11,706 bases of DNA from FCB group bacterium (GCA_034004565.1 JAVEWL010000099.1:1-11706); one strand, 5' to 3'; shown: positions 1 through 9,666, numbered from the stretch's first letter. Program-made: numbers and translations. Notes: generated from the sequence alone by a model not told the origin.

Positions 1-43
1 CGTGGTTGCAGTTCTTTGAGTCTTTGTGGCTTTGTGGTGATCT
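1..43 (+). repeat. Truncated copy (tail end) of the repeat family that forms the 5316..5925 palindrome. It has the same orientation as the right arm there (5859..5925) and continues leftward off the window.
   Basis: Bases 1-10 'cgtggttgca' are identical to 5859-5868. Bases 30-43 'tttgtggtgatctt' are identical to 5908-5921. The intervening 20-mer matches the right-arm 18/20-mer unit at about 16/20, and one 18-nt unit is missing relative to the right arm. The copy abuts the cobA-hemD stop codon (44-46). Confidence 0.6.
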
Positions 44-1558
44 TTATCTTCCGGGCCAGTTTGTGATGGCTTCGACTAGGGAGGGGATGTCGTGGGTGGG
101 GGGTTCGATGGCGATGGGGATGCCGAGGTCTTCGGCGGTTTTTCGGGTGATGGGGCCGATGGCGGCGAAGGCGGTGGTTTGGGCGAGGGTGTGGAGGCGG
201 TCGGGGCCTACCATCTCGCAGAAGTTCTGGACCGTTGACGAGCTGGTGAAGGTGATGAGCTCGGGGTTGTATTTTACGAGGGCATCGGCGAGTTCGTTGG
301 AGGACTCGGGGCGCATGGTGCGGTAGGCGACGAGTTCTTTCACTTCGGCGCCGCGTTTGCGCAGCTCGACGGGGAGGAAGCTTCGGGCGATGTCGGCGCG
401 TGGGAGCAGGAAGCGTTTGCCTTCGAGGGGGCCTTCGGCTTTGACGAGGGCATCCAGGAGATCTTCGGCGACGTATTTCTCTGGGATGAGGTCGACACGC
501 AGGAAACGTTTGCGGATGGCCTCGGCGGTGGCGGTGCCGATGGCGCAGAGTTTCACGCCGGCAAGGTCGCGGCCGTCCTGGCCTAGGGCTTCCATGCGGT
601 CGAAGAGCATGTCGGCGCCGTTGACGCTGGTGACGATGACCCAGTCGTAGTCGCCGACATAGCCGAAGGGCTCGGGTTCGTCGGGCGGGGCGATCTGGAT
701 CGTGGGGAATTCGAAGATGTCGGCGCCGAGCGCGGCGAGGCGCTTGACGAGATCGCTGGCCTGGGCCTTGGCGCGCGTGACGACGATGCGGCGTCCGAAC
801 AGCGGGCGGCTTTCGAACCAGCTTATTTGATCGTGGAGGGAAACGACGTCGCCGACGACGGTAATGGACGGCGGCTGGACTTTTTCGGCCTCGCAGCGTT
901 CGACGATGTTGGCAAGGGTTCCGACGACGGTGCGCTGCTTGGGGTAGGTGCCCCATTCGATGACGGCCACGGGGGTTTCGGGCGCGCGGCCGAGTTCGAT
1001 GAGGCGGGCCGCGACGCGGGCGAGGCCTTTGACGGCCATATAAAGGACGAGGGTGCCGTTTGTGACGGTGCGCAGGGGATCGGGGATGCCCTGGGGACTG
1101 TCGGGGTCGCCGTGGGCGGTGATGAAGGCCACGCCGGCGGAGACGTTGCGGTGGGTGACGGGTATGCCCGCGTAGGCCGGTACGGCGATGCCGGCCGTGA
1201 CGCCGGGGACGACTTCGAAGGGGATGCCGTGCTGCGCGAGGAGGAGTGCCTCTTCCCCACCCCGGCCGAATACGAAGGGGTCGCCGCCTTTGAGCCGCAC
1301 GACGCGCGAGTAACGGCCGGACATCTCGACGAGGAGGCGGTTGATCTCTTCCTGGAGGAGCGTGTGGCGGTCGGTGGTCTTGCCGACGAACACCTTCTCC
1401 GCGTGCGGCGGACAGAATTCGAGGAGCGCCTCGTTCGCGAGGTAGTCGTAGATGACGACGTCGGCGTGTTCGAGGCACTCGCGTCCGCGCAGGGTCAACA
1501 GTCCCGGGTCACCGGGGCCCGCGCCGACGAGATAGACTTTTCCCTGGACGCGACTCAT
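44..1558 (-). CDS. cobA-hemD: Bifunctional uroporphyrinogen-III C-methyltransferase / uroporphyrinogen-III synthase (CobA/SUMT N-terminal domain fused to HemD C-terminal domain), 504 aa.
   Basis: The N-terminus has the SUMT hallmarks VYLVGAGPGDPGLLTLRG...ADVVIYD...RLKGGDPFVFGRGGEE. The C-terminal half matches the HemD fold (GRRIVVTRAKAQASDLVKRLAALGADIFEFPTIQI...). The start is chosen at MSRVQ (ATG 1556-1558) because it forms an ATGA overlap with the hemC stop. The 19 codons upstream in the ORF track overlap hemC and are unlikely to be translated. Confidence 0.85.
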   Translation of the reverse strand: MSRVQGKVYLVGAGPGDPGLLTLRGRECLEHADVVIYDYLANEALLEFCPPHAEKVFVGKTTDRHTLLQEEINRLLVEMSGRYSRVVRLKGGDPFVFGRGGEEALLLAQHGIPFEVVPGVTAGIAVPAYAGIPVTHRNVSAGVAFITAHGDPDSPQGIPDPLRTVTNGTLVLYMAVKGLARVAARLIELGRAPETPVAVIEWGTYPKQRTVVGTLANIVERCEAEKVQPPSITVVGDVVSLHDQISWFESRPLFGRRIVVTRAKAQASDLVKRLAALGADIFEFPTIQIAPPDEPEPFGYVGDYDWVIVTSVNGADMLFDRMEALGQDGRDLAGVKLCAIGTATAEAIRKRFLRVDLIPEKYVAEDLLDALVKAEGPLEGKRFLLPRADIARSFLPVELRKRGAEVKELVAYRTMRPESSNELADALVKYNPELITFTSSSTVQNFCEMVGPDRLHTLAQTTAFAAIGPITRKTAEDLGIPIAIEPPTHDIPSLVEAITNWPGR

Positions 1559-5229: not shown

Positions 5230-5268
5230 TTGGGCCCGGCGCCTATGCCTTTCCTTAACAGTGGAAAC

Positions 5269-5298
5269 AGCATACCGCATGGTTGGGATTGAAGCGAA
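5269..5298 (-). promoter_or_regulatory. Candidate sigma70-like promoter for the hem operon (minus-strand -35 TTCGCT, 18-nt spacer, -10 TATGCT).
   Basis: The plus-strand revcomp of 'agcgaa' (5293-5298) and 'agcata' (5269-5274) gives these hexamers. They lie in the 86-nt gap between the sirC start and the edge of the palindromic repeat. This is weak sequence-only evidence and no clear SD precedes the sirC ATG. Confidence 0.2.
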
Positions 5299-5334
5299 AT
5301 GGGCGGAGCCGGGGAGTAAAGATCACCACAAAGG

Positions 5335-5370
5335 CACGAAGACACAAAGAACCACGAAGACACAAAGAAC
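5335..5370. repeat. Perfect 18-nt tandem repeat x2 (cacgaagacacaaagaac) inside the left arm. The right arm carries one clean unit (5887-5904) plus a degenerate one, and the copy at 1-43 has one unit.
   Basis: Read directly from the sequence. The copy number varies between arms and copies, as in a minisatellite. Confidence 0.8.
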
Positions 5371-5586
5371 AGCAAGAGAAAGGCAACCACGAATGGGACG
5401 AATGGAACGAATCTGAGCCGGGGTAGCCCGAACGCGGAGGACTGTCCCCAACGGAAAACGGGGACTGTTCCACTTTTGGCAAGCGTCCAACTTCCTGCGA
5501 AGCCCACGGCTTGCCTTGGCCCAAACAGTCAAACGGTCCCGCTGACCAAAAGTGGAAACTGTCCCTGCTTTCCGGGAAGGGAATGG

Positions 5587-5613
5587 GTCTTATGAGTCTT
5601 ATAGGTCTTATGG
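5587..5613. repeat. 9-nt tandem repeat x3 (gtcttatga / gtcttatag / gtcttatgg) at the symmetry centre of the palindrome.
   Basis: Read directly. The local AT content is much higher than the ~65% GC surroundings. Confidence 0.75.
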
Positions 5614-5931
5614 GCACCTATTCCCGTTTTGGTCTATAGGGTTCATTTCGTTCATGGGGTCCATTGGTTTTGGCGGAAAGCGGGGACAGTTTCCACTTTT
5701 GATCGGTGGGGCTGATTGGCTGTATGGGCGGTTGCTGGGCTGTGGGCTTCGCAGGCAGTTGGACGCTTGCCAAAAGTGGAACAGTCCCCGTTTTCCGTTG
5801 GGGGCAGTTCTCCGCGTTTGGGCTACCCCCGCTCAGATTCGTTCCATTCGTCCCATTCGTGGTTGCATTTCCCGCTTTTCTTCGTGGTTCTTTGTGTCTT
5901 CGTGCCTTTGTGGTGATCTTCTGAATGAAAA

Positions 5932-5964
5932 CACCCCCAAGTCATGAAGCCGACTTGGGGGTGC
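5932..5964 (-). terminator. Rho-independent terminator of the NfeD-flotillin operon.
   Basis: A perfect 12-bp stem (5932-5943 cacccccaagtc / 5953-5964 gacttgggggtg) encloses a 9-nt loop. On the minus strand it is followed by TTTTCATT (revcomp of 5924-5931). It lies 18 nt downstream of the flotillin stop (5982-5984) and directly abuts the palindrome's right end. Confidence 0.6.
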
Positions 5965-5981
5965 CACAAGAGTCGTTTGGG

Positions 5982-7661
5982 TTAGGCTTGGGCGGTGGGG
6001 GTGATGGGGTCCGCCTTGGGTGTTTCGGGGACGGGGGTCAGGGTGCCGTTCTCGGTGAATTTCACGAGGGTTTCGGGGAGTTCGATGCCGCCGATGTCTT
6101 TCATGACCTGGAGCATGGGCGGCAGGGTGCGGGCGAAACCTTGCAGGAAGTTTGAGGTGACGCTGGTGCCGTTGTTGGCGCCGTTTTCCCAGACGATGAC
6201 CTTATCGAACTTGATGTTCGAGATGGCTTTCGCGGCGGTTTCGGCGAGGTTGTCGAGGTGCTCGAGCATGAGTAGCTTGAAGGCCTGGTCGGAGCCGCCG
6301 GCGGCTTTGATAATGGCGTGGAGGCCTTCGCCCTTCTTGGCGAGGATTTCGTATTGGCCTCGGGCCTCGGCTTCGAGCTTGGCGAAGATGGCGGACGCCT
6401 CGCCCTGAGCTTCGATGCGGCGGCGTTCGGCGTCGGCTTCGGCCTCGACGATGGTGCGGGCCTTGTCGGCCTTGGCGGGGGCTTCGACCTCGGCACGGCG
6501 CTCGGCTTCGACCTTCTCGGCCTCGGCCAATGCGGCACGGGCCAGTGCGTGGTTCTGGGCTTCGAGCACAGCGGCCTCGGCTTCGCGCTTGCGCGTCTCG
6601 CCCAACTGGTAGGCCTCGGCCTGCTTGACCTGGAGGGCGGCGGTGGAGGCGGCGACGCGCGCCTTGGCCTCGTTCTCGCCTTCGACGGCCAAGGCGTTGG
6701 CGCTGGACTGGCGCACGTTGAGTTGCGCGTTGGCGTCGGCGACGTGGGCCTGGGATTCGTTTTCGCCGGCGACGGCCTTGGCGTTGGCCTCGGCGATGGC
6801 GATACGCATCTTGCGCTCTTCTTCTTTGACTTGCGCGTCGCGGGCGTAGACGGCGGCCTGCTCGGCGACCTTCTGTTCGCGGTCGAGTTCGGCGATGCGG
6901 ACGGCCTGATCACGCTCGGCCTCGCGCATGCCGATTTCGCGCATCTTGCTGGCGCTGGCGACTTGCACGACCTTTTCGCGGTCGGCTTCGGCCACGCGGA
7001 CCTCGCCGAGCTTGACCTGCTCGGCCACGTCGCCGCGGGCCTGCTGGATGGCCTGCGAGGCGGCCTTTTGTCCGATAGCCTCGATGTAGCCTGAGGCGTC
7101 GGTGATATCGGTGATGTTCACGTTGATCAGCACGAGGCCGATCTTGCGCAACTCGGGTTCGACCGAGTTCTGGATGTTGGCGAGGAAGCTTTCGCGGTCG
7201 CGGTTGATGTCTTCGATGTGCATCATCGCGATGACCTGCCGGAGCTGCCCGAAGATGATGTCTTCGGCCTGCTTCTTGATCATGTGCGTGTCGAGGCCGA
7301 GCAAACGGATAGCGGCATTTTGCATGACTTCCGGCTCGGTGCCGATCGCGACGGTAAAGACGCTGGGCACGTTCACGCGGATGTTCTCGCTCGACAGCGC
7401 GTCCTTGAGCGGCACTTCGATCTGGATCGGTTCGAGGCTGAGGTAGGCGTAGTCCTGGATCAGCGGGATGACGAAGGAGGCGCCGCCGTGGATCGTGGTA
7501 CAGGATTTGCCGCCGCCCACTTTGCCGTAGACCACGAGGACCCGGTTGCTCGGGCAGCGCTTGTAGCGCTTGGCGAGGAGCAACACGAATCCGGTGAATA
7601 GCACCAGTACGATAACGGCAAGCATTACCGCGAATGGGTTGGCCATGATGCTGTTAGGCAT
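5982..7661 (-). CDS. floT: Flotillin-family protein (SPFH/band-7 domain, FloT/YuaG-like), 559 aa.
   Basis: An N-terminal TM helix (FAVMLAVIVLVLFTGFVLLLA) is followed by an SPFH domain and a long Ala/Glu-rich coiled-coil (EA repeat region). The C-terminal tail is as in long flotillins. A strong SD AGGGAGGAG lies ~10 nt upstream of ATG 7659-7661 and the gene is paired with an upstream NfeD. The symbol is by analogy to B. subtilis floT, not an orthology claim. Confidence 0.88.
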   Translation of the reverse strand: MPNSIMANPFAVMLAVIVLVLFTGFVLLLAKRYKRCPSNRVLVVYGKVGGGKSCTTIHGGASFVIPLIQDYAYLSLEPIQIEVPLKDALSSENIRVNVPSVFTVAIGTEPEVMQNAAIRLLGLDTHMIKKQAEDIIFGQLRQVIAMMHIEDINRDRESFLANIQNSVEPELRKIGLVLINVNITDITDASGYIEAIGQKAASQAIQQARGDVAEQVKLGEVRVAEADREKVVQVASASKMREIGMREAERDQAVRIAELDREQKVAEQAAVYARDAQVKEEERKMRIAIAEANAKAVAGENESQAHVADANAQLNVRQSSANALAVEGENEAKARVAASTAALQVKQAEAYQLGETRKREAEAAVLEAQNHALARAALAEAEKVEAERRAEVEAPAKADKARTIVEAEADAERRRIEAQGEASAIFAKLEAEARGQYEILAKKGEGLHAIIKAAGGSDQAFKLLMLEHLDNLAETAAKAISNIKFDKVIVWENGANNGTSVTSNFLQGFARTLPPMLQVMKDIGGIELPETLVKFTENGTLTPVPETPKADPITPTAQA

Positions 7662-8250: not shown

Positions 8251-8505
8251 AGATGCCATCTCCCCTGTCTGCCGTCGCAGAAACCGGACGCCGCAAACGC
8301 TGCACGCCTTGGGTCCTGGCGAACACGCAGCCAACACGAGTATCAGTGTAAACCATTTGCGGGGAAATTGGCAGTCGGTTGGGTCAACGCTCCGGGCGGT
8401 TTCGAGCGCGGAACAGAAGGAACCGTTTTGCGGCTCCGAGTATAGTAGGCAACGTCCGGCACAGACGCAGAATACGCAAAGGTTTGTTTTTTGGGGGGAT
8501 TCTCG
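8251..8505. promoter_or_regulatory. Divergent intergenic/promoter region between the NfeD-flotillin operon (-) and the ICMT-DUF218 gene (+).
   Basis: A 255-bp non-coding gap lies between two divergently oriented starts. No specific -35/-10 elements could be assigned with confidence. Confidence 0.3.
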
Positions 8506-9666
8506 ATGGCGGTGCTGCTATTTCGCGTGGTGCCGGGGTTGTTCTTTCTGTTGTACCTGATCCTGCTGGCGGTTCAGGGGGCGCGCTGGTCCGTTTGTGC
8601 TCGTATTCTAACTTGCTCGGGGTGGCGCGATCGCGTGGCGTGCGGACTGTTTGCGCTGGGGCACGTTCCGGCGGCGTTGTACTTCAGCGGCCGGACGCTG
8701 GATCCGTTCTATGTGCACGTTCCGGTGGTGCTGCGCATGGGCGGACTCGCGCTGTACATGCTGGGGATGGTGCTGCTGCTCTGGGCGTACGTGACGCTCG
8801 GCAGGAACTGGTCGCCGCTGCTTGAAATCCGGAAGGGACATACCCTCACCACGTTCGGGCCGTACCGCTACGTGCGGCATCCGATGTACATCGCGCTTGG
8901 GGGGATTGGACTCGGCATGCTGGTTTTGTCCGCGAATGCGCTGGTGGGGCCTGCCTTCCTTATTACGTACGTTTTCCGGGTCTTTCGTGTCGGCGCCGAA
9001 GAGGACATGCTCCGGGATCATTTCGGCGGTGACTTTCAGGCGTACGTGGGACGGACGGACCGTTTCGTTCCGCGCGTTGTGAGCAGGATCGCCGGGAGAC
9101 GCTGGGCCCGCGCAACAGCGGCAATGGTATTGGCGGCCCTGCTCCTGGGTTGTGGAGCGATTGTACGAGCGGGTCTTTCGGACGAGATTCAGAAGGCGGA
9201 TGTGGCGGTCGTGCTGGGGTGTCGTGTGTATACCAATGGCGAGCCCGGCCACTCGTTGAAATCCCGGCTCAACGCGACCGTTCGCCTGTACCGCCAGGGA
9301 TGGTTTCCGGAGATTGTCGTGAGCGGTGGAATGGGCCGCAACAATCAGGATGAAGCGACCATCATGCGGCGCTACCTTGTCGCGCACGGCGTCCCGGCCG
9401 AGCGCATTCACACCGACAGCGAGGGCGTGAACACGCGCGCCACGGCCTTGCACGCGGCCGAGTTCCTGCGGCGGCGCGGCCTGAAGAGCGCCATGGTCAT
9501 CACGCAGTTCTACCACGTGCCGCGTGCGCAGATGGCCTTGCGCGAGGCGGGCGTCAAGACCGTGTATGGCGCGCACGCACGGTATTTCTCGTGGCACGAT
9601 GCCTATGCGGTTCCGCGCGAGTTGGCGGCGATTCTGTGGTACCGCCTGCGCGAGGCCGTGGCGTAG
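8506..9666 (+). CDS. Fusion membrane protein with an N-terminal isoprenylcysteine carboxyl methyltransferase (ICMT)/phospholipid-methyltransferase-like domain and a C-terminal DUF218 (YdcF/SanA/ElyC-like) domain, ~386 aa.
   Basis: The ICMT-family signature is ...LTTFGPYRYVRHPMYIALGG...EEDMLRDHFGGDFQAYVGRTDRFVP. An extra TM helix precedes a DUF218 signature (AVVLGCRV...LKSRLNATVRLYRQGWFPEIVVSGGMG...DEATIMRRYLVAHGVPAERIHTDSEGVNTRATA...MVITQFYHVPRAQMAL). The start is taken at ATG 8506 (MAVLLF), preceded by a GGGGGG run. The track's 8491 start is a TTG and would add 5 aa. Confidence 0.8.
   Translation: MAVLLFRVVPGLFFLLYLILLAVQGARWSVCARILTCSGWRDRVACGLFALGHVPAALYFSGRTLDPFYVHVPVVLRMGGLALYMLGMVLLLWAYVTLGRNWSPLLEIRKGHTLTTFGPYRYVRHPMYIALGGIGLGMLVLSANALVGPAFLITYVFRVFRVGAEEDMLRDHFGGDFQAYVGRTDRFVPRVVSRIAGRRWARATAAMVLAALLLGCGAIVRAGLSDEIQKADVAVVLGCRVYTNGEPGHSLKSRLNATVRLYRQGWFPEIVVSGGMGRNNQDEATIMRRYLVAHGVPAERIHTDSEGVNTRATALHAAEFLRRRGLKSAMVITQFYHVPRAQMALREAGVKTVYGAHARYFSWHDAYAVPRELAAILWYRLREAVA

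Follow-up and report, generated by a model that had tools for sequence, protein, structure and literature searches.

The contig analysed here, 11,706 nt from an FCB group bacterium (the window, by which we mean this whole stretch), opens inside a short repeat, carries haem genes on its minus strand and has, upstream of sirC, an imperfect 609-nt palindrome (5317-5925) whose outer arms belong to the same repeat family. This raises the question of what the copy at 1-46 is and whether it has anything to do with the haem genes. The first-pass annotation proposed that the copies could mediate deletion or inversion of the whole tetrapyrrole cluster, or else that the repeat has a preference for the ends of genes and for intergenic boundaries. 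The explanation that we prefer, with a probability of about 65%, is that 1-46 forms the terminal arm of an intergenic DNA palindrome of the REP/MITE kind, selfish or neutral and with slipping units, and that the contig broke at this repeat. The features on which the argument turns are given in Table 1.

Table 1. Coordinates of the repeat copies and neighbouring features in the window
Position	Strand	Feature	Evidence
1..46	+	One half of a family hairpin, truncated at the contig end	R1 match and alignments to both arms
14..37	+	Three tandem 8-nt units (CTTTGTGG consensus) forming the arm	Tandem Repeats Finder: period 8, 3.0 copies, 87% matches
44..46	-	TAA stop of cobA-hemD within the A-rich outer repeat end (GGA AGA TAA, then AGATCACCAC)	Sequence
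44..1558	-	cobA-hemD fusion (uroporphyrinogen-III C-methyltransferase/synthase), last haem gene on the contig	PF00590 and PF02602
4588..5229	-	sirC	Gene annotation
5317..5376		Left outer arm of the palindrome, tail family, with two 18-nt units	Repeat finder; R1, 23 bits as a cut stretch
5377..5871		Palindrome interior: other nested palindromic modules, outside the tail family	Repeat finder, sequence, folding
5872..5925		Right outer arm of the palindrome, orientation as 1-46	Alignment; R1, 32.3 bits as a cut stretch
5932..5963	-	Terminator-like hairpin of the Band_7/SPFH gene, stem followed by TTTTCATTC on the minus strand, 6 nt from the right arm	Sequence
5982..7661		SPFH/Band_7 gene	Gene annotation

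The repeat copy at the contig end

The window is a complete MAG contig, so it is the end of the assembly that truncates the 1-46 copy. The contig opens with CGTGGTTGCAGTTCTTTGAGTCTTTGTGGCTTTGTGGTGATCTTTA. Positions 1-10 (CGTGGTTGCA) are identical to 5859-5868 and positions 30-43 to 5906-5919, so the 10/10 and 14/14 identities reported at first are real. Between them a diverged 20-mer had been described. Because 11-46 matches the reverse-complemented left arm (5317-5352) at 33 of 36 positions (92%; repeat finder and gapped alignment) and 11-44 the right arm at 31 of 34 with one gap of about 24-30 nt (gapped alignment), this segment is a copy of the tail-adjacent unit, and 1-46 a copy without one 18-nt unit and a short spacer. 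The copy differs from both palindrome arms by three substitutions and a deletion of about 30 nt, and the longest uninterrupted identity between copies is 15 nt in direct and 17 nt in inverted orientation (alignment). The left arm has two copies of the 18-nt unit (5335-5370), the right arm and 1-46 about one each, which bears out the minisatellite-like length variation first proposed.

The 21-mer common to the three tails (TYGTGSCTTTGTGGTGATCTT) occurs three times in the window (24-44 on the plus strand, 5319-5339 on the minus strand and 5900-5920 on the plus strand), and none of 200 dinucleotide-preserving shuffles gave a match. On the plus strand 1-46 is a 3' arm; on the minus strand it is a 5' arm lying directly after cobA-hemD. 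The copy had been said to end one base before the cobA-hemD stop codon. The match up to position 43 stands, but the similarity does not stop there: it reaches 44 against the right arm and 46 against the left, so the stop codon is inside the repeat and not one base past it. The last codons and the TAA of cobA-hemD (the complement of 44-46) are part of the A-rich outer end, and the family repeat thus provides the stop codon of the gene. The predicted protein ends in W-PGR*, two to three residues shorter past the conserved Trp than its counterparts in three relatives (L001, L081 and L082).

The palindrome at 5317-5925 folds into a single hairpin (-439 kcal/mol as RNA, z -31.5; z -34.6 as DNA). 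Its arms pair at 5319-5360/5879-5920 (42 nt, 100% complementary), 5378-5510/5739-5871 (95%) and 5519-5574/5674-5729 (84%), with at least 40 perfect pairs at the tails. It is built in layers: from the outside inwards, 55-60 nt of the tail family on each side, ACGAATGGR 9-mers, four alternating CCAAAAGTGGAA..GTCCCCG units and central GGGTCTTAT 9-mers. Only the outer layer is common to the palindrome and 1-46. No ORF overlapping the palindrome or the tail matched a Pfam family. The mismatches between the palindrome arms are strand-biased (24 G:T against 4 A:C on the plus strand), which the background GC skew of +0.13 accounts for only partly. The terminator-like hairpin beside the right arm partially matches the terminator part of RybB; a terminator consensus scan of the window did not list this hairpin and did not flag the tails.

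The haem gene cluster and its spacers in relatives

The minus-strand genes of the window are sirC, a ccsA-like gene, hemA, hemC and the cobA-hemD fusion. The CobA-HemD protein (504 aa) is 100% identical to the database entry MDX9972702.1, and its next-closest relatives are from Candidatus Hydrogenedentes MAGs. The cluster on the contig is incomplete. In relatives cobA-hemD is followed by hemB (L001, L003 and L082) and then, in L001 and L003, by hemL, so the tail at 1-46 lies within the haem cluster and not at its edge. Beyond the contig end the cluster probably goes on with hemB, and synteny would place the 1-46 copy in the spacer between cobA-hemD and hemB. Direct and inverted copies do occur around the haem genes of the window, as first noted, but the copy taken for the outer end of the operon is internal to the cluster.

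The closest relative with DNA (L001, 87% amino-acid identity) has a 226-nt palindrome at this site (11520-11745, 95% complementary), directly past the cobA-hemD stop codon and followed by hemB. Its gene order is gyrA, metallophosphoesterase, a small gene, Band_7, PPK2, sirC, ccsA, hemA, hemC, cobA-hemD, hemB, a PF05635 gene and hemL. A palindrome of ACGAAT-type 7-mers stands just upstream of sirC, the position of the 609-nt palindrome in the window, and large palindromes occupy several of the longer spacers, including one at 14694-15024 whose ends, AAAAGCTTCACCAC / GTGGTGAAGCTTTT, are the family terminus. Two sister contigs of L001 (L002 and L004) end inside the same palindrome after cobA-hemD, showing that assemblers break there.

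Other relatives differ at these sites. In L083 (82%) tandem repeats of about 100 nt follow the cobA-hemD stop codon; L081 (76%) has a plain spacer of 92 nt and L082 (71%) a plain spacer of 186 nt followed by hemB. The gene after cobA-hemD in L081 has no Pfam record and is probably hemB. Neither L081 nor L082 has a hairpin after cobA-hemD or a palindrome upstream of sirC, and the order and orientation of sirC-ccsA-hemA-hemC-cobA/hemD are the same in L001, which has the repeats, and in L081 and L082, which do not. Because the repeats are present in L001 and absent from L081 and L082 while gene order is constant, the repeats at both sites are lineage-specific additions to a conserved cluster rather than a part of its conserved regulation.

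The CACRAAG hairpin family

A covariance model, R1, was built from an alignment of 21 compact hairpins (68-110 nt), all from outside the window, namely from metagenomes and phage contigs. Their ends, TCACCAC and GTGGT, are invariant and the R:Y positions covary (AU/GC/GU). Run on the whole window, R1 gave a single match, at 1-50, which covers half of the model and is truncated where the sequence ends (32.4 bits, E 8.5e-8). The model is not wholly independent of the window, since 6 of the 21 hairpins in the alignment were retrieved with its 21-mer; a left-arm pattern supplied the remaining 15. In keeping with this match, 1-46 has the TCACCAC/GTGGTGA end followed by CACRAAGR / YCTTYGTG octamers. 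The match, the two alignments and the shuffle test together identify a member of a repeat family and not a chance 40-nt match.

In 570 kb of retrieved loci R1 found 74 distinct hairpins, and about 17 loci carry two to four copies within 14 kb or less. Members have (A-rich)TCACCAC...GTGGTGA(T-rich) ends, also written TTCACCAC...GTGGTGAA, stems of 8-nt CACRAAGR / YCTTYGTG units in variable number, variable interiors and spans of 60-600 nt. Left flanks are A-rich and right flanks T-rich (CAAAAG...CTTTTG), T-rich right flanks being common. Interiors differ between copies on single contigs (L023, L076). Solo arms without a partner also occur (L014:4664-4684, which alone fills a 36-nt spacer between two genes, L079:5446-5518 and L069 at about 1418). 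Reading frames through the repeats are false ORFs with HEGTK- or FVPFV-like peptides.

Among 185,579 species-representative genomes the 21-mer retrieved 11 loci. Seven of these have the CTTYGTG unit style outside the 21-mer pattern and end at GTGGTGATCTT; they are from Terriglobia, Bryobacteraceae, Pirellulales, Sumerlaeota, Anaerolineaceae and other MAGs. A JGI metagenome scan returned 18 loci, nearly all of them hairpins with a left arm, (T)TCACCACRAAGRCACRAAG, that was absent from the search pattern, and a scan of IMG/VR viral contigs with the left-arm pattern returned 47, some of them clearly phage. Hosts of the family thus include Acidobacteriota, Planctomycetota, Chloroflexota, Sumerlaeota and Hydrogenedentes-like MAGs, in addition to phage contigs; GenBank phages and PLSDB plasmids gave no family match. 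Identical 21-mers occur across phyla which, with the copies on phage contigs, suggests horizontal spread.

Many of the hairpins have an ORF end within 0-30 nt on either side, and copies inside operons lie 4-30 nt before the next ORF start. This agrees with the preference for gene ends and intergenic boundaries that was the other suggestion of the first-pass annotation. On one phage contig (L079) a hairpin follows a head-morphogenesis gene, and on another (L069) arms flank protease and HK97-type capsid genes. Arm pairs may also be long-range, 1-2.4 kb apart, enclosing phage portal/head genes in L079 and the protease/capsid genes in L069, and ORFs read through solo arms. These enclosing pairs were considered as an autonomous form of the element; they enclose phage genes and no transposase. 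The copies in tightly packed phage operons (L076, L079 and L069) could point to a selected function.

A search of Rfam 15 with the window and ten family loci gave no match at gathering or E-value thresholds and only sub-threshold matches to miRNA-like hairpins and terminators. Literature searched by characteristic 12-16-mers gave no match, and the keyword route led only to a paper on REP sequences and TIRYTs. The family appears to be uncatalogued and its host range unusually broad.

Nature of the element and competing explanations

Among known repeats the closest in behaviour are the repetitive extragenic palindromes (REP sequences) of Enterobacteria and Pseudomonas and their mosaic clusters (BIMEs), which are likewise abundant intergenic palindromes, often just past stop codons and in many copies per genome, which form mosaics of palindromic modules comparable to the layered 609-nt palindrome, and which are regarded as selfish sequences that affect mRNA stability and termination only incidentally. 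REP sequences tagged GTAG or CGTC are imperfect palindromes of 20-40 bp with the tag at one end (Di Nocera et al. 2013, PMC3733652). In contrast, the arms here are 30-60 nt or longer in hairpins of 60-600 nt with TCACCAC/GTGGTGA ends and tandem-octamer stems, neither tag is present at the ends of 1-46 or 5317-5925, and the family spans several phyla and phage contigs. Interior units of the window palindrome contain GGGGACAG, which fits the GGGGWSAS motif of inverted repeats around RAYT-like transposase genes (PMC3733652).

Bacterial MITEs able to form hairpins include Correia/NEMIS in Neisseria, RUP and BOX in Streptococcus pneumoniae, ERIC/IRU and the Rickettsia palindromic elements. The CACRAAG element shares with MITEs terminal inverted repeats with conserved ends (42 nt, 100% complementary, in the window palindrome), an intergenic position that sometimes overlaps gene ends or supplies stop codons, presence/absence differences and contig breaks. 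Unlike MITEs, it has no conserved interior, copies on the same contig have already diverged, and 610 kb of DNA yielded no parent insertion sequence that shares its ends. Interiors that differ within a single contig (L023) are also unlike a classical MITE burst. The bases after GATCTT vary (TA, TT, CC, GC, AA) and show no consistent target-site duplication; the empty sites of L081 and L082 are too diverged to align. The 610 kb of flanking DNA gave no transposase, no target-site duplication and no autonomous or parent element ending in this way, and mobility is therefore argued only from presence and absence in relatives and from the 21-mers that are identical across phyla.

A third likeness is to the intervening sequences (IVSs) of rRNA genes. 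That of the Coxiella 23S rRNA has a long inverted-repeat stem with heptamer tandem repeats whose number varies between strains, and has been described as a selfish element of unknown mobility (PMC4990558). The CACRAAG hairpins also have a long inverted-repeat stem made of short tandem units in variable number. Some intervening sequences carry a gene of the PF05635 'four helix bundle / S23p' family. Among the loci retrieved here, PF05635 genes lie between operon genes in inverted arrays of 7-9-nt units at four of five loci (L001, L084, L086 and L088), the flanks at the fifth (L090) being partly inverted. These hairpins and the ORF-less CACRAAG hairpins are alike in building style, but their unit sequences differ and homology is not demonstrated. 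The window has no rRNA and no PF05635 gene, and there is none next to any of the 74 hairpins. PF05635 as a cargo of the family was considered and dropped: tblastn with the L001 protein placed none by any of the 74 hairpins, and a PF05635-profile scan of viral contigs returned one locus. The CACRAAG element thus behaves like REP/BIME sequences and hairpin MITEs yet lacks the tag and short length of the former and the conserved interior and parent insertion sequence of the latter, and what it has with IVSs is a resemblance and not membership. It is doubtful that ORF-less tandem-unit hairpins, both those of the CACRAAG family and the other palindromes of the window's lineage, and PF05635 hairpins form one IVS-like superfamily, an undescribed class of mobile hairpin that would insert between cistrons and into rRNA in at least five phyla and in phages, spread without a transposase and be excised by RNase III.

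The hairpins also resemble intrinsic bidirectional terminators in being stem-loops between an A-tract and a T-tract, past stop codons. Their stems are, however, far longer and of mixed composition rather than GC-rich, their primary sequence is conserved across phyla, and copies stand 4-30 nt before the next start in operons and apparently also between divergent genes. This leads to an alternative that we judge unlikely, namely that selection maintains the hairpins as RNA elements, whether as terminators or attenuators within operons, as RNase III sites or as 3'-end stabilisers, and that the 1-46 copy tunes cobA-hemD against the hemB cistron. Such a role is suggested by the position of the copy directly at a stop codon, by the many members that fill spacers between co-directional ORFs, by flanks like those of bidirectional terminators, by the several copies within compact phage structural operons, by a weak R1 match over the Band_7 terminator-like hairpin (5921-5974, E 0.008) and by the 87% relative, which has a hairpin at both sites. 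The 76% and 71% relatives have none at either site and keep the same haem gene order, which shows that the hairpin is not needed for the haem genes. Additionally, the sequence of a terminator is free to drift, so 21-mers identical across phyla would not be expected, and the family has no Rfam match. Gene context was tried as a guide to termination in two crude, noisy ORF-based classifications and dropped: one of them called contexts divergent in 15, convergent in 16 and tandem in 34 cases, which is approximately what random occupancy of spacers would give, and the depletion of divergent contexts expected of terminators was not seen.

The mismatches between hairpin arms bear on the same point. 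In a selected RNA structure G:U pairs should be tolerated and A:C pairs lost on the transcribed strand. In 72 family hairpins there were 105 G:T and 99 A:C arm mismatches, with no leaning to the sense strand of flanking genes (58 against 52), and mismatches were not polarised within hairpins (observed 86, null 92.7 +/- 8.4). That there is neither an excess of G:T nor strand polarisation argues that the symmetry of the palindromes belongs to the DNA and is maintained at that level. The 24:4 bias of the window palindrome itself runs counter to this; followed up as a sign of strand-specific RNA selection, it was not seen in short stems (9:9), in the L001 palindromes (11:11) or in the 72 hairpins (105:99). 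Mimicry of a Shine-Dalgarno or anti-Shine-Dalgarno sequence (GGTGATC against the 16S 3' end GAUCACC) was also considered and rejected: most members end in GTGGTGAA, which leaves only five complementary bases.

A less probable alternative is that 1-46 is a solo arm, a relic or half-site without a partner, and that the contig ends here for an unrelated reason such as low coverage. With any partner lying outside the contig, 1-46 could be such an arm. Solo arms do occur in complete contexts, as in L014, L079 and L069, and 1-46 is shorter than the palindrome arms. However, positions 1-10 repeat a segment internal to the tail (5859-5868), so the copy continues inwards where the contig stops. Contigs of a relative (L002 and L004) also end in a palindrome at this site, and the corresponding spacer of L001 contains a complete hairpin.

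It is highly improbable that the haem genes form a recombination module, flanked by direct and inverted copies, that can be deleted, inverted or moved as a unit. The geometry is real (1-46 is direct with respect to 5872-5925 and inverted with respect to 5317-5376, around 5.2 kb of haem genes) but gene order and orientation are constant: no inversion or deletion of the cluster was found among the relatives compared (L001, L081 and L082), repeat or not, and in them the comparison of related loci that the first-pass annotation called for gave no support to its rearrangement proposal. As described above, the cluster also runs past the tail. RecA-mediated recombination needs about 25 nt of identity for efficient homologous exchange, and the 15-17 nt shared by the copies are too short for this. 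In one pair of related soil contigs, L032 and L033, identity is 99% on the right-hand side of a family hairpin and there is no relation on the left, so that homology breaks exactly inside the hairpin, but this break may be a chimeric short-read join at the repeat. PPK2, which lies beside the palindrome in L001, is missing from the window; a repeat-mediated deletion of this gene was considered and rejected, since the window retains no remnant of the gene and, in L001, the side of PPK2 that faces away from the palindrome has no hairpin.

Finally, a chance low-complexity similarity, or an assembly artefact joining palindrome sequence to the end of cobA-hemD, can be put aside as the least probable explanation: the CTTTGTG units are of low complexity and the site is at the very end of a short-read MAG contig, but the shuffle test and the R1 E-value speak against chance, three substitutions and a deletion of about 30 nt against the arms show that this is not a duplicated k-mer path, the copy gives an in-frame stop codon and L001 has a hairpin at the same site.

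We therefore return to the terminal arm of an intergenic DNA palindrome. A selfish or neutral REP/MITE-like element would have colonised gene spacers, and its arms would grow and shrink by slippage of their short units; the three tails have one or two 18-nt units and the two sides of one gene in L001 have 5 and about 17 units. Most likely the assembler could not pass repeated palindromic sequence, which would place the contig end inside the 1-46 copy. The partner would then be a complementary arm (AAGATCACCAC...) lying between position 1 and hemB. In this position between co-directional genes the element would be co-transcribed, giving a long, near-perfect double-stranded RNA stem that would be a substrate for RNase III. 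Cutting by RNase III has been shown experimentally for the stems of rRNA intervening sequences (PMC4990558). A cut here would part the cobA-hemD message from that of hemB and leave a remnant of the stem at the upstream 3' end. Such processing would be incidental, not a regulator selected for the haem genes.

The haem 'bracket' is thus most likely an effect of assembly and repeats and not a mobile tetrapyrrole cassette, and the element is ordinary in kind, an intergenic palindromic repeat that most likely broke the assembly. CACRAAG repeats fragment metagenome assemblies, create false ORFs and alter gene ends, and a covariance model of the family would aid the finishing and annotation of MAGs. 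The model would also help to trace how palindromic repeats pass from one phylum to another, perhaps with phages as carriers.

Structure of the 609-nt palindrome and its neighbouring hairpin

The interior (window 5413-5830) of the 609-nt palindrome upstream of sirC (window 5317-5925) contains four copies, in alternating orientation, of the roughly 30-nt unit CCAAAAGTGGAA(A/C)..GTCCC(C/T)G. Within this unit, GGGGACAG fits the GGGGWSAS motif of the inverted repeats found around RAYT-like 'TIRYT' transposase genes in Acidobacteria and Rhodopirellula (Di Nocera et al., 2013, PMC3733652). In an unrelated MAG, a GGGGACAGTCCC hairpin adjoins a tail of the CACRAAG-stem hairpin family (L006:470-530, -).

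The mismatches between the palindrome arms show a strong strand bias (24 G:T versus 4 A:C on the + strand, which here is antisense to the flanking genes) and the biased positions lie mostly in 5511-5737. The whole window has a GC skew of +0.13 and an AT skew of -0.13, and this accounts for only part of the bias. No such excess of G:T over A:C was found in the family at large or in the palindromes of L001, a relative at 87% amino-acid identity.

Six nucleotides from the palindrome, the Band_7 gene has a terminator-like hairpin that reads CACCCCCAAGTC...GACTTGGGGGTG on the - strand, with T-rich sequence after it. This hairpin resembles the terminal stem of the family, CACCACAAAG...CTTTGTGGTG, and is matched by the family covariance model R1 (E 0.008).

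Gene content and other repeats

L001 carries a PPK2 gene between Band_7 and sirC (5319-6329) that is not present in the window (5230-5981), where tblastn found no PPK2 remnant. The window has an ICMT/DUF218 gene (8491-9666, +) that is extra with respect to L001; it lies on the opposite strand, between the small gene and the metallophosphoesterase gene. This clade also has a different repeat type, in which units of roughly 100 nt (AGCCCTGGAAGGGCGGCCAGAATACAGCCC... and GGGGTGACCCTGTGAATAGCCCCGGGTTGCGGC...) are arranged in tandem, and these occupy spacers, including one after cobA-hemD in L083, a relative at 82% identity.

PF05635 genes ('23S rRNA intervening sequence protein' or four helix bundle) are found between co-directional operon genes at five loci, where the pairs split are hemB-hemL, rmlA-rmlC and moxR-DUF58. 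In four of the five loci there are inverted arrays of 7-9-nt tandem units on both sides of the gene, and the numbers of units on the two sides are very unequal (5 versus about 17 in L001); the flanks in L090 are inverted only partly. Many PF05635 homologues are on contigs of less than 2 kb, as expected if the flanks break assemblies.

Coordinates of repeats, hairpins and PF05635 gene loci in the window and in fetched loci (unit lengths are approximate)
Feature	Location	Strand
30-nt interior unit, copy 1	window about 5450-5480	-
30-nt interior unit, copy 2	window about 5539-5575	+
30-nt interior unit, copy 3	window about 5674-5712	-
30-nt interior unit, copy 4	window about 5770-5815	+
Band_7 terminator-like hairpin	window 5921-5974	-
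100-nt tandem units	L083:1051-1383	
100-nt tandem units	L001:19340-19905	
PF05635 gene locus	L001:12796-13370	
PF05635 gene locus	L084:590-1130	
PF05635 gene locus	L086:630-1165	
PF05635 gene locus	L088:640-1180	
PF05635 gene locus	L090:540-1010	
AGGAG + ATG loop hairpin	L045:6563-6674	-
AGGAG + ATG loop hairpin	L067:2016-2124	
AGGAG + ATG loop hairpin	L037:7126-7225	-
AGGAG + ATG loop hairpin	L065:6062-6159	-

Family hairpins at a break in homology and in reading frames

Two soil-metagenome contigs, L032 (1900-2300, -) and L033 (1-260), share 99% identity on the right side of a family hairpin and have unrelated sequences on its left, with homology ending within the hairpin itself. The point where it ends is either the breakpoint of a rearrangement or a chimeric join made during assembly.

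Some compact family hairpins have a Shine-Dalgarno-like AGGAG and an ATG in the loop. From these, a short reading frame that encodes a hydrophobic peptide (such as MNKIIGFSLCLCVFVV) extends across the right arm. Other members of the family do not consistently keep this frame, and it has probably arisen by accident. On two phage contigs (L079:3989-6322 and L069:750-2180), long ORFs run through solo family arms to give peptides of the ...HEGTK... type, and such read-through may make two adjacent genes look fused. Annotation errors are likely to arise in this way in any sequence that carries the family.
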